Of a stretch of 5,624 nucleotides of DNA, positions 64 to 4,254 are shown one piece after another; the first letter of the stretch is position 1; each line of letters starts with the position of its first letter. This DNA is from a virus (taxonomy: Duplodnaviria > Heunggongvirae > Uroviricota > Caudoviricetes): the IMG/VR virus record IMGVR_UViG_2597490238_000004; one strand, written 5' to 3'. The position numbers and the translations under genes are program-made. The notes under the pieces are model-generated. The model saw only the letters and a list, made by a program, of their open reading frames with translations. It was not told the origin of the DNA and made no database searches.

Positions 64-88
64 AAAAAAGCCCGCATCAGCGGGCTTT
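64..88 (-). terminator. GC-rich hairpin with flanking A/T tracts; intrinsic terminator-like, stronger for leftward (minus-strand) transcription
   Basis: Seen in sequence: A-run 64-69, stem 70-75 (gcccgc) pairing with 80-85 (gcgggc), 4-nt loop atca at 76-79, then ttt at 86-88. On the minus strand the hairpin is followed by a 6-U tract; on the plus strand by only 3 U. Confidence 0.45.
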
Positions 89-243: not shown

Positions 244-315
244 TATTTTTATAATTAGCTGAAATAAAACGATTAATACTAACCATTTTATTCTGCGGAT
301 CTTTTGCGGCTCCTT

Positions 316-1215
316 TTATGTCTGGATGTGGTCGTCAACACATCCTCTTTTAAATACAGGCGCTTTTACCTTAGTTGGATCATCTGTTTTAAAGATTTTC
401 AATCGTTCACTGAAGAACATTACCTCAGATCCTTTGTACCGATCTTGAGCACTGTAGTTTATTCCATATACTAATGATGATGTCTTATACATAGCTTGGA
501 TCTCAGGAGTGTTATCGTAAGAAACAATCCAAGGTGTTTTAATATTATTCTGTACGACTTTTGCAACCCTAACATGATCATCATGATCATAATGGTTGAT
601 ATATAAACCTTTACCTTTTATGTAATAAGGTGGATCCAAATATGTTAATGAGTTTTGTGGCAATTGAGTAACTATTTTTTTAATGAAATCAATTGCATCC
701 ATGTTATATAAATCTATTCTGTGACGATTTTCTGATATTTTATGGATTCGAGAAATCAAATCACTCTTATTATAGCGAGCGTCAAGCTTCCATTTCCCTT
801 CTTGATTTTTACCGCCAATTACTCCACCTTTTAATATTCCAGAACGATTTGTTCTATTGAGAAAAAAGGTTGAGAAACCAATTGTTAAAAGATCATGGTC
901 TTTAGGATTATTAATTATATCTTTCTGCCTAAACCATTCATCCATTGTAACTTCTGTTCTTTCAATTAAAGAACATAATTGATCTGCATGATTTAATACA
1001 CTGTGCCAAAAAGCATAAACAGAAATATTAATATCATTAAGGATGATTTTTTCAGCTGCATTTAGATGTAACAGTTTCAATGCTAAACCAGCACCCCCAG
1101 CATATGGTTCGGCATAATGTATAGGCGAAAGATTATTTTCTTCAATAATCCGAAGCATGAAATTTGCAAGCTTGCCTTTACCGCCAGGATAGCGAAGTGG
1201 GGTGTTAAAACGCAT
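316..1215 (-). CDS. Dam-family (D12 class) N6-adenine DNA methyltransferase, 299 aa
   Basis: Translation shows the Dam-family motif set in the Dam order: N-terminal RYPGGKGK (compare Dam LKWAGGK), motif I EPYAGGAG (nt ~1087-1110), LNDINIS (compare Dam ILADINSDL), FFLNRTNRSG (compare Dam LYLNRYGYNG), and catalytic DPPY (residues 194-197, nt 625-636). GAGG sits 7 nt upstream of the ATG at 1213-1215. AT-rich codon usage. Confidence 0.85.
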   Translation of the reverse strand: MRFNTPLRYPGGKGKLANFMLRIIEENNLSPIHYAEPYAGGAGLALKLLHLNAAEKIILNDINISVYAFWHSVLNHADQLCSLIERTEVTMDEWFRQKDIINNPKDHDLLTIGFSTFFLNRTNRSGILKGGVIGGKNQEGKWKLDARYNKSDLISRIHKISENRHRIDLYNMDAIDFIKKIVTQLPQNSLTYLDPPYYIKGKGLYINHYDHDDHVRVAKVVQNNIKTPWIVSYDNTPEIQAMYKTSSLVYGINYSAQDRYKGSEVMFFSERLKIFKTDDPTKVKAPVFKRGCVDDHIQT

Positions 1216-1250
1216 ATGATACCTCTAAATGTCAGATCTAAAGTATATCA

Positions 1251-1289
1251 AAAAAAGGGCTTTATGGCCATCACATAAAACCCTTTTTT
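1251..1289 (-). terminator. Imperfect hairpin in the ATPase-MTase intergenic region; terminator/attenuator-like
   Basis: Seen in sequence: aaaaaaggg (1251-1259) pairs with cccttttttt (1281-1289), with an inner tttat/ataaa pairing (1261-1265 with 1276-1280) and one bulged c. On the minus strand it lies just after the ATPase stop (1296-1298) and is followed by a 6-T run, then the MTase RBS. AT-rich stem, so stability is uncertain. Confidence 0.35.
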
Positions 1290-1295
1290 AATCAA

Positions 1296-3029
1296 TTAGT
1301 TATCTGACAGATATGATGAGATGGTAGCAGAATCGACACCATGTCCACTTATCATAATAACTTTAAGACTCTTTATTAGTTCATTCTTGAAGCTATCCGA
1401 TTGAACAGGATTTTTCTCGACCCAATATCGATATGGGTTATCTTTAACTCTTCCTTTGACTTGGGCCTGAAATTGAGTCGTATGTGCAAAATCTTTAAAC
1501 AGTTTTCTAACTCTCCCTCCATGGTTTTTGTTAACTTTTTTATAATTATCTATAAGGATTTTTAAATCAATCGGAGCGTTACCAATCTTTAGCGTTGCAA
1601 TTATGTCTTTAGCTGTTTTCATAAAAACAGCTTTTGTAAATTTATTTTTATTTTCCCAATATGCATCATCAGGTGGTAAATTATATAAAAACTCAAAAAT
1701 CATTTGGTCTGGAGGTAAGGTGCTTGGAAGCAAACATAAGTTTTTTTCTTTTTTGGCTTTTTTTGCATTAGCACTGTTGTCGTGAACAACATCACCGTCT
1801 AAGACGATCAAGCTTTTAGCTGTAAATTCTGGTATTTTTCTTGCCATTAAGTCAAGCATGGCAGAGCAGCTAATATTTATATTTCCTAATGGATTTAATA
1901 TTTTATTTATTTTTCGATCTGTTATCAATTGTTTGAAAAAGTCGAAACCTTCTTTGTCTTCAAAATATACATTTGCCTTTGGAAGACAAATGTCATCATT
2001 AATTTTTACAGTTTCAACATGTAAATCAGCGTGGATATCTGTCCATGAAAGATTATTCTTTGTTTTAATATCTCCATATGTGTCTGTAAGATATATTGTT
2101 TTAAAGCTATCACTATCTTGTTTTGAACGATTATAGATATCCTCTATTATTAATGGAGAGTGCGAGGTCATGATTATTTGCAGATCGTATTGTTTTGCTG
2201 CTTTAGTTAGAATATTAATTAGCTCTAACTGTGCCGCAGGGAAAAGACCTGCATCGGCTTCATCAATTAACAATATTCCGCCATGATAATCAGAATAAGT
2301 TTCCTTCAATCTTTTAAATGAAAAAATTGCCTGGATTAATTGTCCAACATTATCTTCACCAACAGATACTGATTGGTGATCATAATTGTCACCATGGACA
2401 ACCATTGAATCGATAGTACCTTTTGTTGCTGTTACTGAGCTTCCATTGTTTTTTAGTAAGAGTTGGTTACTCATCATTCTGATTTCATCAGAATTTTCAT
2501 TGATGTACTGAACATCCCGTGTTGAGTAATCAGTCCTTAATGTAATAGGAAGAAGTCGTGCTAAGCTTAAAAAAATAACAGGATGAGTAACGTTTCTACT
2601 TTGGTTTTTTTCCGGTATTGAATCATTTCCCCTGACTACAGGCCTAGATTTATCTCTGTCACTGTAGCTGTATAAACCTAATGTTAGTTTTTCAAGATGT
2701 TTGTTCGATGCACCATCATAGACACTAATTTTGACGTCCATTGAACCAGGAACATCAAATTGTTCTGAAAGCCTAAAATGTTCGCTGAAAGCTGACTTGA
2801 AGCTGCCATTTGTTAATGTTTTATATTGTGTTAAATCAGTCTCAGGGTTTTTGGTAAAGTCCTTTGTAAAGCTAAATATTTGGGCGATAATGCCAAGAAT
2901 TGTGGATTTAGATGTGCCATTTTTACCACAAATAACAGTTAGGCGAGAACCAAACTCGATGTTTATATTTTTCAGTCCGCGAAACTTCACAACATTTATA
3001 TTTTTTAGTTTGGTAATTTGATTTGCCAT
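1296..3029 (-). CDS. ABC-type (OLD-family-like) ATPase with C-terminal TOPRIM-like putative nuclease domain, about 577 aa from the preferred start
   Basis: Walker A GKNGTSKST (nt 2901-2927, verified by back-translation), signature-like SVGEDNVGQ, Walker B ILLIDEAD (nt ~2256-2279), H-loop-like MTSHSP (nt ~2154-2168). C-terminal region has an acidic VYFEDKEGFD motif (E374 of the 594-aa ORF, nt ~1959-1961) and LIVLDGD (DxD, nt ~1791-1799), the spacing and pattern expected of a TOPRIM fold as in OLD/Gabija GajA-type proteins. Preferred start is the ATG at 3027-3029 (MANQITKLKNINVVKFRGL, a typical N-terminus for this ATPase family, GGAG upstream). The ORF track's start at 3080 has no RBS and would translate through a palindrome. 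Confidence 0.8.
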   Translation of the reverse strand: MANQITKLKNINVVKFRGLKNINIEFGSRLTVICGKNGTSKSTILGIIAQIFSFTKDFTKNPETDLTQYKTLTNGSFKSAFSEHFRLSEQFDVPGSMDVKISVYDGASNKHLEKLTLGLYSYSDRDKSRPVVRGNDSIPEKNQSRNVTHPVIFLSLARLLPITLRTDYSTRDVQYINENSDEIRMMSNQLLLKNNGSSVTATKGTIDSMVVHGDNYDHQSVSVGEDNVGQLIQAIFSFKRLKETYSDYHGGILLIDEADAGLFPAAQLELINILTKAAKQYDLQIIMTSHSPLIIEDIYNRSKQDSDSFKTIYLTDTYGDIKTKNNLSWTDIHADLHVETVKINDDICLPKANVYFEDKEGFDFFKQLITDRKINKILNPLGNINISCSAMLDLMARKIPEFTAKSLIVLDGDVVHDNSANAKKAKKEKNLCLLPSTLPPDQMIFEFLYNLPPDDAYWENKNKFTKAVFMKTAKDIIATLKIGNAPIDLKILIDNYKKVNKNHGGRVRKLFKDFAHTTQFQAQVKGRVKDNPYRYWVEKNPVQSDSFKNELIKSLKVIMISGHGVDSATISSYLSDN

Positions 3030-3051
3030 GTTTCTATCTTGCTCCGTAAAA

Positions 3052-3070
3052 TGGCCACAAATTGTGGCCA
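3052..3070. promoter_or_regulatory. Near-perfect palindrome TGGCCACAA-a-TTGTGGCCA between int stop and ATPase start; candidate operator or RNA hairpin
   Basis: Seen in sequence: 9-bp arms 3052-3060 and 3062-3070 are exact reverse complements around a single central base. It sits in the 58-bp gap between the int stop (3088-3090) and the preferred ATPase ATG (3029). Confidence 0.35.
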
Positions 3071-3086
3071 ATAGTTTCATGCTTGG

Positions 3087-3092
3087 ATTATA
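3087..3092 (-). promoter_or_regulatory. Candidate sigma70 -10 hexamer (TATAAT on minus strand) overlapping the int stop codon; possible cargo promoter
   Basis: Minus-strand reading of 3087-3092 is TATAAT, a perfect -10 consensus. The best -35 candidate (TTGAAG) is only 10 nt upstream, so spacing is wrong and no good -35 exists at 16-18 nt. Weak call. Confidence 0.2.
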
Positions 3093-4254
3093 TTGTTATC
3101 TTCTTCAAGCTTGTTTGTCCATCATATTCCTTCAGATATGAGCCATAGTGCCTGAAAAGCATCTCCGGCCCTTTATGCCCCATTTGAGCTGCAAGCCAAA
3201 ACAGGTTTGCTCCCCGGCTGATATGGCGGGTGGCGAATGTATGCCTGGTTTGATATGGATTTCTGTAACGAATACCTGCTTTTCGCAATGTTGGCACCCA
3301 TGCTTTTTTCCTGATTGCATCAGCACTTGCCCAGGGCTTATTGGTCTTTGGATCTTCAAAGACAGTAGCATCCTTCATGAATGTAAATGGCTTCTGATTT
3401 ATCAGCGCCAACATTGCATCTTCTGTCAGTTCAACTTTACGAGTACCGGCTTTTGTCTTTGTTCCTTTGATAACACCGACAACACTTGCGCTCTGGACAT
3501 GGGCAGTTTTTCCAACAAAGTCGATATCACGCCATCGAAGGGCACATAATTCAGAACTACGCAGGCCTGTATGTATAGCGAACCGGAACAGATTCTCCCA
3601 TTGTTTGTTTCCGGCTGCTGTTAGTAATGCATCAACTTCTGCTGGTGATAGCGGATCAACCACGTAGCTGCTTTCTGCTTCTGACTTATCACTTTGGTAG
3701 CGCGAAGCAGTTACCAACGATACGGGGTTAATTTGAAGTACCCCATCGGTTACGGCTTCATCAAGTGCTGACCGCAGGAAAGATAACTGGTTGCGAATTG
3801 TTTTTAAGGTCGTTTTCTGGCTTTGAATCCACGCTTTCAGGATTGCTGGTGTTAATTCACTTGCAGGGCAAATGTGGAGTGAGGCTAACGCACTACGGCA
3901 TTTTTTATAACCACCAATCGTAGAGGGTGAAAGTTTTCTCGTTTCGCAGATTTCAAGGTATTCGTCCAGGTACATTTTTACCGTTTTGCCTGCAGCAGCA
4001 TTACCAAAAATTTTCAAACGAGCAGAACGGGGAAAATATTCCGCATAAATGAATGTTCCCCTTTCGATCTTATTATGAATTTCGCCGAGTGTGCGCTCGG
4101 CGTATTTAATGTTCTTTGGTGTTACTTCCAGATTGGAAAGAGGCTCACGACATTTAACTCCTTTGTAGGTGAAAGTTATATTGATCGTTTCGCCCTGGCG
4201 GTGTTTCCTGATTGTTACGCCGCGCGGTAGTTTGAGCAGTTTTGTCTGGCCCAT
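3088..4254 (-). CDS. int: Tyrosine-recombinase phage integrase, 388 aa, Rac/e14-like with N-terminal arm-binding domain
   Basis: C-terminal catalytic motifs visible: ...RNPYQTRHTFATRHISRGANLFWLAAQMGHKGPEMLFRHYGSYL (R, HxxR and the catalytic Tyr in HYGSY). N-terminus MGQTKLLKLPRGVTIRKHRQGETINITFTYKGVKCREPL resembles the arm-type DNA-binding domain of Rac IntR-like integrases (from memory). GAGG 7 nt upstream of the ATG at 4252-4254. Confidence 0.9.
   Translation of the reverse strand: MGQTKLLKLPRGVTIRKHRQGETINITFTYKGVKCREPLSNLEVTPKNIKYAERTLGEIHNKIERGTFIYAEYFPRSARLKIFGNAAAGKTVKMYLDEYLEICETRKLSPSTIGGYKKCRSALASLHICPASELTPAILKAWIQSQKTTLKTIRNQLSFLRSALDEAVTDGVLQINPVSLVTASRYQSDKSEAESSYVVDPLSPAEVDALLTAAGNKQWENLFRFAIHTGLRSSELCALRWRDIDFVGKTAHVQSASVVGVIKGTKTKAGTRKVELTEDAMLALINQKPFTFMKDATVFEDPKTNKPWASADAIRKKAWVPTLRKAGIRYRNPYQTRHTFATRHISRGANLFWLAAQMGHKGPEMLFRHYGSYLKEYDGQTSLKKITI

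Follow-up and report, generated by a model that had tools for sequence, protein, structure and literature searches.

The DNA analyzed here is a stretch of 5,624 nucleotides from IMG/VR virus record IMGVR_UViG_2597490238_000004, referred to below as the window. It is the end of a lambdoid prophage of Escherichia coli, with all of its genes on the minus strand, and it carries a gene labeled 'AAA family ATPase' in RefSeq, followed by a gene for a D12-class N6-adenine DNA methyltransferase. Our analysis strongly supports two assignments for the ATPase protein: residues about 367–453 make up a TOPRIM domain whose acidic metal-binding set (E374, D375, E377, D428 and D430) is complete, and the protein represents a longer sister family of the IbfA/HEC-04 anti-phage proteins. 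Its C-terminal tail of 275 residues is apparently a genuine TOPRIM nuclease domain, predicted from sequence to be active. The features of the gene pair are as follows.

1296..3029, minus strand: coding sequence of the ABC-ATPase-TOPRIM gene (RefSeq label 'AAA family ATPase'), 577 amino acids plus stop
2010..3029, minus strand: N-terminal ABC ATPase head, SMC/Rad50/PtuA-like, residues about 18–357
2907-2909, minus strand: Walker A K58, intact
Within the ATPase head, minus strand: signature-like SVGEDN (S239), intact
2259-2264, minus strand: Walker B D273/E274, intact
2160-2162, minus strand: H-loop H307 (TSHSP), intact
1722..1982, minus strand: TOPRIM core, residues about 367–453, beta1 to beta4
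1959-1961, minus strand: E374 in beta1 VYFED, codon checked
1956-1958, minus strand: D375 in beta1 VYFED, codon checked
In the TOPRIM core, minus strand: E377, after beta1
In the TOPRIM core, minus strand: S404, after beta2, Gly in 52/65 homologs
1797-1799, minus strand: D428 in beta3 LIVLD-G-D, codon checked
1791-1793, minus strand: D430 in beta3 LIVLD-G-D, codon checked
In the TOPRIM core, minus strand: L451-P452 in beta4 LLP
1299..1721, minus strand: C-terminal all-helical domain, residues 454–594, beginning with P457-D458
1707-1709, minus strand: D458, D or E in 65/65
In the helical domain, minus strand: R525, kept in 58/65
1494-1496, minus strand: K529, kept in 63/65
1216..1295, minus strand: spacer of 80 bp between the ATPase and methylase genes
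316..1215, minus strand: D12-class N6-adenine DNA methyltransferase, annotated 'DNA adenine methylase', 299 amino acids, Pfam PF02086 at 1.8e-19

Residue numbers (E374 and so on) follow the longest open reading frame, 1296-3080 on the minus strand, of 594 codons. The numbering of an earlier note on this DNA is that of this frame and equals the RefSeq numbering plus 17, because RefSeq and all distant homologs begin at M18 (3027-3029; MANQ..., 577 amino acids). The 594-residue start was rejected for the same reason. The 17 additional codons (3030-3080, minus strand) have a similar counterpart in Citrobacter homologs of 595 amino acids, where about 12 of 19 positions are identical; they are less conserved than the rest of the protein (87%), and the distant homologs are without them. 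The extension is probably an untranslated leader, which ends 8 bp beyond the stop of the integrase.

Among 65 aligned full-length relatives, the Walker A lysine K58, SVGEDN, the Walker B pair D273/E274 and the H-loop H307 are invariant, and the ABC ATPase head should therefore be active. It appears nearer to SMC, Rad50 and PtuA than to OLD or GajA. NCBI naming of the family is inconsistent: several homologs, among them ones from Yersinia, Klebsiella oxytoca and Citrobacter amalonaticus and one from E. coli, are called 'ATP-dependent nuclease', while most, the window gene included, carry only the name 'AAA family ATPase'.

The C-terminal TOPRIM domain

The interval 1776-1979 on the minus strand encodes residues 368–435, reading KANVYFEDKEGFD...SLIVLDGDVVHDN. 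The earlier note had pointed to VYFEDKEGFD (E374) and LIVLDGD (D428/D430), 54 residues apart and located after the H-loop H307, and this arrangement is borne out codon by codon. The motif alone is no evidence, because the plain pattern E-x(48-60)-DxD is present in 75% of shuffles of the ATPase protein; a stricter pattern, which requires hydrophobic strands ahead of both E and DxD, is found in 2.6% of them. The reality of the motif rests on conservation and not on the bare pattern.

Conservation of the acidic residues holds in both a close and a deep sampling of homologs. E374, D375, D428 and D430 are invariant in 26 homologs of at least 50% identity (50–87%). A profile search with the C-terminal 277 residues against 1.84 billion representative proteins returned 464 relatives. 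In the alignment of 65 full-length relatives, whose most distant members share 24% identity (column identity averages 25%), P457 joins the same four residues as an invariant C-terminal position. Position 458 is acidic throughout (41 Glu, 24 Asp), and further positions are kept in most relatives: L451-P452 in 64, K529 in 63, R525 in 58 and E377 in 55. Position 404, where the window protein has Ser, is Gly in 52 relatives and Ser in 12, together 64 of 65. The middle Gly of D428-G-D430 is found in 55, and both flanking Asp residues in all 65. The window protein retains all of the acidic positions.

The TOPRIM superfamily was reportedly defined by Aravind, Leipe and Koonin in 1998. AlphaFold2 models were obtained for the C-terminal domain, with a predicted local distance difference test score (pLDDT) of 86.4 and a predicted template modeling score (pTM) of 0.80, and for the full-length protein (pLDDT 93.6). 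Both show the order beta1 (VYFED), helix, beta2 followed by S404, helices, beta3 (LIVLD-G-D), helices, beta4 (LLP) and an all-helical domain, with E374 and the DxD motif at the C-terminal ends of the predicted strands VYFED and LIVLD. The signatures of the superfamily are a Glu after beta1, a Gly after beta2 and a DxD after beta3 (PMC6755086). The predicted topology places Glu, Gly/Ser and DxD at these three positions, so that structure prediction points to a TOPRIM-like succession of elements rather than to the absence of such a fold.

The structural likeness to OLD, AriB and GajA is weak. Structure comparison (score and aligned length in brackets) matched the model to Retron Eco2 RT-Toprim (6.0, 176), AriB (5.5, 150), the C-terminal region of Burkholderia pseudomallei OLD (BpOLD; 5.5, 143) and T. 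scotoductus OLD (5.2, 131); other matches were receiver-like or other Rossmann-like folds over about 90 aligned residues. A Foldseek search of the C-terminal model against the PDB gave nothing better than E = 0.44, with no significant match.

The nearest characterized relatives are HEC-04 and IbfA. HEC-04 is a single-protein ABC-ATPase-TOPRIM anti-phage system (Payne et al. 2024; bioRxiv 10.1101/2024.01.29.577857). Its defense is lost in the mutants K62A and E319A/D375A/D377A, and its predicted TOPRIM was aligned to BpOLD in the same study. IbfA of IncI1 plasmids (R64/pUA1135) is a HEC-04 homolog (PMC12111858). The PADLOC HEC-04 model matches the whole window protein at 2e-16, with the best stretch at residues 25–70 only, and the window C-terminal domain alone gave no match to it at E <= 1. 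Among isolated C-terminal segments, those of 7 of 21 long-form and 3 of 9 short-form relatives are matched at about 1e-4, at model positions about 308–406. For the family as a whole, HEC-04 is the best PADLOC neighbor, and it is also the best PADLOC match of a second E. coli long-form variant (3.4e-22, from Walker B to DxD). IbfA itself matches the model at 9e-42 over positions 16–386.

For profile comparison, the IbfA sequence was taken from plasmid R64 (NC_005014), and 100 IbfA-family sequences were collected independently. Aligned with hhalign, the C-terminal profile of the 65-sequence family matched the IbfA-family profile with a probability of 95.6% (E 1.1e-8, 108 columns); the match to the single IbfA sequence had a probability of 87.5%, and a long-form-only profile gave P = 1.3e-4. 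The alignment pairs E374/D375 with IbfA E318/D319, D428/D430 with D372/D374, L451-P452 with the LP ending at IbfA P414, and P457-D458 with P419-E420, and the motifs E/D, DGD and LP..P[DE] stand in register between the two families. Conservation within the IbfA family is 100% at E318, D319, D372, D374 and E420 and 99% at P414 and P419. BLAST does not link the two families; a tblastn search of the ATPase against plasmids did not reach IbfA. From the hhalign match and the HEC-04 mutants together, the domain is homologous to a TOPRIM whose triad is needed for defense.

The domain adds a new member to a known fold, and the description 'OLD/GajA-type' holds for its fold and active-site logic and fails for family membership. 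The Pfam family OLD-like_TOPRIM (PF20469) matched none of 86 members scanned (21 + 65), while P2 Old scores 1.2e-17, and the ATPase head, as noted above, appears to lie nearer to SMC, Rad50 and PtuA. The PADLOC ATPase-Toprim_I-B alignment of the ATPase protein does run through the TOPRIM region. The loose likeness to DUF4435 proposed at first found no support, as Pfam DUF4435 (PF14491) had no match in the same 86 members; DUF4435 membership was rejected on this basis.

Linkage to a D12 methylase

The methylase encoded at 316-1215 has an intact S-adenosylmethionine (AdoMet) motif, EPYAGGAG, and an intact catalytic DPPY. Genomic linkage was scanned with one genome per species, which gave 80 loci with long-form homologs of 42–88% identity from Gamma- and Betaproteobacteria, Geobacter, Bacteroidota, Mycobacterium, Listeria and Acidobacteriota. 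A homolog of the window methylase lies within 3 kb in 78 of the 80. In the other two, the contig breaks off 1 or 77 bp past the ATPase gene, which leaves 78 of 78 informative loci. The methylase is mostly directly downstream on the same strand, with five loci in which it lies upstream or on the opposite strand; among these odd arrangements, one is upstream on the same strand, one upstream on the opposite strand and two downstream on the opposite strand. Pairs with the methylase upstream or divergent were also found at identities down to 32%. Within prophages the pair occupies varied positions, beside the integrase, beside cI, or between lysis and Q genes. On this genomic evidence, the ATPase-TOPRIM long form appears obligately linked, always, to one D12 methylase family. 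The one short-form relative whose context was checked (P0184, ~500 amino acids) stands alone, and IbfA on R64 is without an adjacent methylase.

Among 5426 complete E. coli genomes, the ATPase gene (at least 80% coverage) is present in 85, about 1.6%. The methylase gene (at least 95% identity) and at least 80% of the whole window are likewise each present in 85, the three counts having been taken separately and not matched genome by genome.

The best PADLOC match of the methylase is PD-Lambda-5_B (2e-124, full length), and it is 51% identical to the methylase of a verified PD-lambda-5 locus (L026, below). PD-lambda-5 consists of a ParB-N/HEPN protein plus a D12 methyltransferase and is a validated, broad, prophage-borne defense; its discoverers called it a compacted 'RM+Abi' (restriction-modification plus abortive infection) system, and its cloning needed an mrr-deleted host (Vassallo et al. 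2022). In another E. coli, at a P2-like prophage hotspot (locus L026:2078-4537), a true PD-Lambda-5_A (5e-168) adjoins a methylase 51% identical to that of the window, so one methylase family serves two unrelated effectors; a single methylase module appears to have been swapped between them. No PD-Lambda-5_A was found among the PADLOC matches of the window ATPase, and membership of the window pair in PD-lambda-5 was rejected because the effector differs. In the Q-antiterminator region of a further E. coli prophage (L027:3901-6205), the methylase is paired with a protein annotated ParB/Srx. A methylome paper on E. coli sequence type 131 (ST131) lists a putative methylase of strain JJ1886, M.Eco1886ORF14565P, with no motif given; it may correspond to the window gene.

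Several related loci have settings of their own. E. coli L65 holds a second, diverged copy of the two-gene cassette at the icd locus (L025:1976-4615), in an e14-like prophage with a different integrase adjoining; its ATPase is 47% identical, and its methylase has about 68% nucleotide identity over the central half. In PADLOC, this copy too is matched best by HEC-04. A metagenomic locus (L022:1-5710, 32% identity) has a divergent methylase/ATPase-TOPRIM pair beside a Type III mod/res pair, a small defense island. In a Yersinia prophage (L005-L007), the cassette has the holin/lysis genes on one side and antiterminator Q on the other. A Mom-like gene and a gene for a 686-residue protein with a faint DNA_methylase match are present as well, so that several DNA-modification functions occur together in this prophage.

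Prophage setting

The window matches strains such as MS21324 at 100% identity and the ST131 strain JJ1886 at 99.4%; in the latter, the copy adjoins glaH and the gab operon. Besides the gene pair, it contains the following.

3088-4254, minus strand: integrase
Window gene list, minus strand: yfdR-like gene and small phage genes, with an excisionase-like open reading frame
1270..1242, minus strand: sigma-70-like site TGGCCA-17-TG-TATACT with extended -10, from a consensus scan, a candidate methylase promoter
67..88, minus strand: strong intrinsic-terminator-like hairpin (9-bp stem, 6 GC pairs, T-run), 3' of the methylase gene

The G+C content is 30–36% in the two cargo genes (251-3000) and 43–50% in the integrase and phage genes (3000-5624), with 44–50% for the phage genes. 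This contrast is typical of an acquired cargo cassette and suggests recent uptake from a low-GC source. Because a promoter-like site lies in the spacer and a terminator-like hairpin follows the gene, the methylase could have its own expression and may be expressed independently of the nuclease gene. The hairpin at 67..88 is likely the end of the transcription unit, at the junction of prophage and chromosome. A second hairpin of 11 pairs, ACATTTGTCTT-CCA-AAGGCAAATGT, lies within the coding sequence at 1969-1993 (minus strand), a few codons upstream of the E374 codon; it was flagged as terminator-like by the scan and may be a chance occurrence.

Proposed function and comparison with known systems

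With moderate confidence, we favor the interpretation that the pair is a compact, prophage-borne restriction-modification-like module, with an ATPase-gated, OLD-like two-metal TOPRIM nuclease as its effector and the methylase as self mark. It is favored because the long form always adjoins one family of D12 m6A methyltransferases. The TOPRIM domain would act as a Mg2+/Mn2+-dependent nuclease with OLD-like two-metal chemistry, and binding or hydrolysis of ATP by the ABC head would control its access to nucleic acid. Target sites in host and prophage DNA would carry the methylase's mark, and incoming DNA without it would be nicked or cut by the ATPase-TOPRIM enzyme.

Several points weigh against such a module. 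To our knowledge, TOPRIM is not among the nuclease folds of classical restriction enzymes, which are PD-(D/E)XK, HNH, GIY-YIG, PLD and half-pipe. Pfam shows no TOPRIM on the C-terminal domain and matches only ATPase families in the window protein, 21 C-terminal segments and 65 relatives; NCBIfam likewise gives ATPase models only. Searches of all PDB sequences with phmmer and profile hmmsearch returned only ATPase matches or noise (INCENP). The predicted strand order, and the putative proximity of D458 and K529 to the E/DxD cluster, derive from model topology only and not from coordinates. An hhalign comparison of the C-terminal profile with P2 Old and five close relatives was negative (P = 0.17) and of low power; it is uninformative, because the IbfA profile fails the same comparison, and it reflects a thin reference profile and not a missing relationship, a search for loci related to Old having returned only relatives of at least 73% identity. 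The related TOPRIM protein AriB cleaves tRNA and not DNA (PMC11464382). Finally, IbfA and HEC-04 defend without a methylase and look abortive or toxic (bioRxiv 10.1101/2024.01.29.577857; PMC12111858), for which reason the effector may be activated by a trigger instead of reading methylation.

This last point leads to the main competing explanation, which we regard as plausible and distinctly less probable than a restriction-modification-like module: the protein would be a trigger-activated abortive effector, like PARIS, Gabija, retron Eco8 and HEC-04/IbfA, and the methylase would not be a mark of self and non-self. The ABC head would sense a phage protein or nucleic-acid structure, for example an anti-restriction DNA mimic or single-stranded DNA-binding protein, and unleash indiscriminate DNA cleavage, while the methylase would be a separate first-line or 'guarded' component or would merely damp basal self-cleavage. 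Such a role fits the nearest characterized relatives, IbfA and HEC-04, which work alone, are toxic when induced and lower cell viability. It also fits the ABC-ATPase plus TOPRIM systems with known triggers, which are sensor-effector systems, and the name 'RM+Abi' given to PD-lambda-5 with its methylase of the same family. However, a lone methylase gives no defense, which leaves nothing to 'guard', and an effector independent of methylation would not readily account for the 78/78 linkage, which spans phyla and gene orders. The stand-alone short forms show that the effector otherwise needs no partner.

Cleavage of RNA or a non-catalytic role is less likely than either of these. An RNA-targeting enzyme, which like AriB (a DUF4435 protein) would cut tRNA or other RNA on activation and for which DNA methylation would be irrelevant to the substrate, seems improbable. 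AriB and retron Eco2 illustrate that OLD-like TOPRIM domains can target tRNA or RNA, and the C-terminal domain of one family member has a PADLOC NsnC match; yet Pfam DUF4435 is absent from the scanned members, the obligate DNA methyltransferase partner points to DNA, and the authors of HEC-04 aligned this nearest relative to a DNA nuclease, BpOLD. Very improbable is a non-catalytic domain, either Rossmann/receiver-like with a regulatory acidic cluster for Mg2+ or phosphoryl binding (compare CheY-type REC domains) or a degenerate TOPRIM serving only in DNA binding or oligomerization: REC domains too have two acidic residues after beta1 and an Asp after beta3, and the window protein has Ser instead of the canonical Gly after beta2, but the model has four core strands and then helices, the full TOPRIM set E / G(S) / DxD is present and invariant with all acidic positions intact, and the triad of the homologous IbfA/HEC-04 is required for defense. 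A REC domain was rejected, there being no beta5 Lys and no Thr/Ser after beta4, where L451-P452 stands.

PADLOC 2.0 does not call the two-gene module as a system, and we found no account of an ATPase-TOPRIM plus adenine-methylase system in the literature searched, the survey of Krishnan et al. 2020 (PMC7544218) being outside its coverage. We tentatively propose, and would put this somewhat below an even chance, that the pair is a previously unnamed, widespread restriction-modification-like system, in which an ATP-dependent TOPRIM restriction arm is combined with a D12 methylase that serves as a portable self-marking module, plugged into at least two unrelated effectors (ABC-ATPase-TOPRIM and ParB-N/HEPN). 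The identity of a 275-residue tail covered in databases only by the label 'AAA family ATPase' is settled as a predicted TOPRIM nuclease domain, and K58, E374, D375, D428, D430, D458 and K529 are singled out as residues for mutation. The strictly conserved two-gene module extends from about 1.6% of complete E. coli genomes, including ST131 such as JJ1886, to at least 80 species in several phyla. If the nuclease reads its partner's methylation, it would bring a new catalytic fold to restriction enzymes, and one methylase family would be a swappable self-marking module for different effectors; if it is trigger-activated instead, the pair raises the question of what an abortive-infection effector needs a methylase for.

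Among known systems, the OLD proteins share the order of an ABC ATPase followed by a TOPRIM and a helical domain, and their E-to-DxD spacing is close (54 residues here, 55 in BpOLD). We compared four OLD classes: class 1, P2 Old and T. scotoductus OLD; class 2, GajA and BpOLD; class 3, the retron Eco8 effector; and class 4, AriA/AriB. In the BpOLD active site, E400 and D455 ligate metal A together with D457, E404 and E508 serve metal B, and the helical domain supplies K562, which completes catalysis (PMC6755086). E374, D428 and D430 are candidate counterparts of E400, D455 and D457. D375/E377, D458 and K529 parallel E404, E508 and K562, respectively, and by this analogy D458 may stand in for the OLD metal-B ligand and K529 for the catalytic lysine. 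The partner differs, being a methylase and not a UvrD-like helicase, a retron or a split AriB. The neighbors are an integrase and the D12 methylase, and neither the window nor any related locus with a gene table that we read showed a helicase or reverse transcriptase.

Type II and III restriction-modification systems similarly have adjacent nuclease and m6A methylase genes and are mobile and horizontally spread, and Type I, Type III and some Type II systems have a nucleoside triphosphate-dependent nuclease partner. In contrast to Type II/III systems, the nuclease fold here would be TOPRIM, and the window pair has no specificity subunit or controller protein. With PD-lambda-5 the pair shares the methyltransferase family and the form of a two-gene prophage 'moron' in which the effector gene precedes that of the methylase, whereas the effectors are unrelated (ABC-ATPase-TOPRIM here, ParB-N/HEPN PD-Lambda-5_A there). 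IbfA and HEC-04 likewise combine an ABC ATPase head and, in one protein, a C-terminal TOPRIM that carries a conserved E...DGD triad. The window family is about 60–80 residues longer (577 amino acids versus about 500–520), and its different, larger helical domain conserves R525/K529/W553 where IbfA has H424/E441/H456. The window protein is without a strong full-length match to the HEC-04 model (2e-16, compared with 9e-42 for IbfA), and while IbfA and HEC-04 stand alone, the long form invariably has a D12 methylase as its partner.

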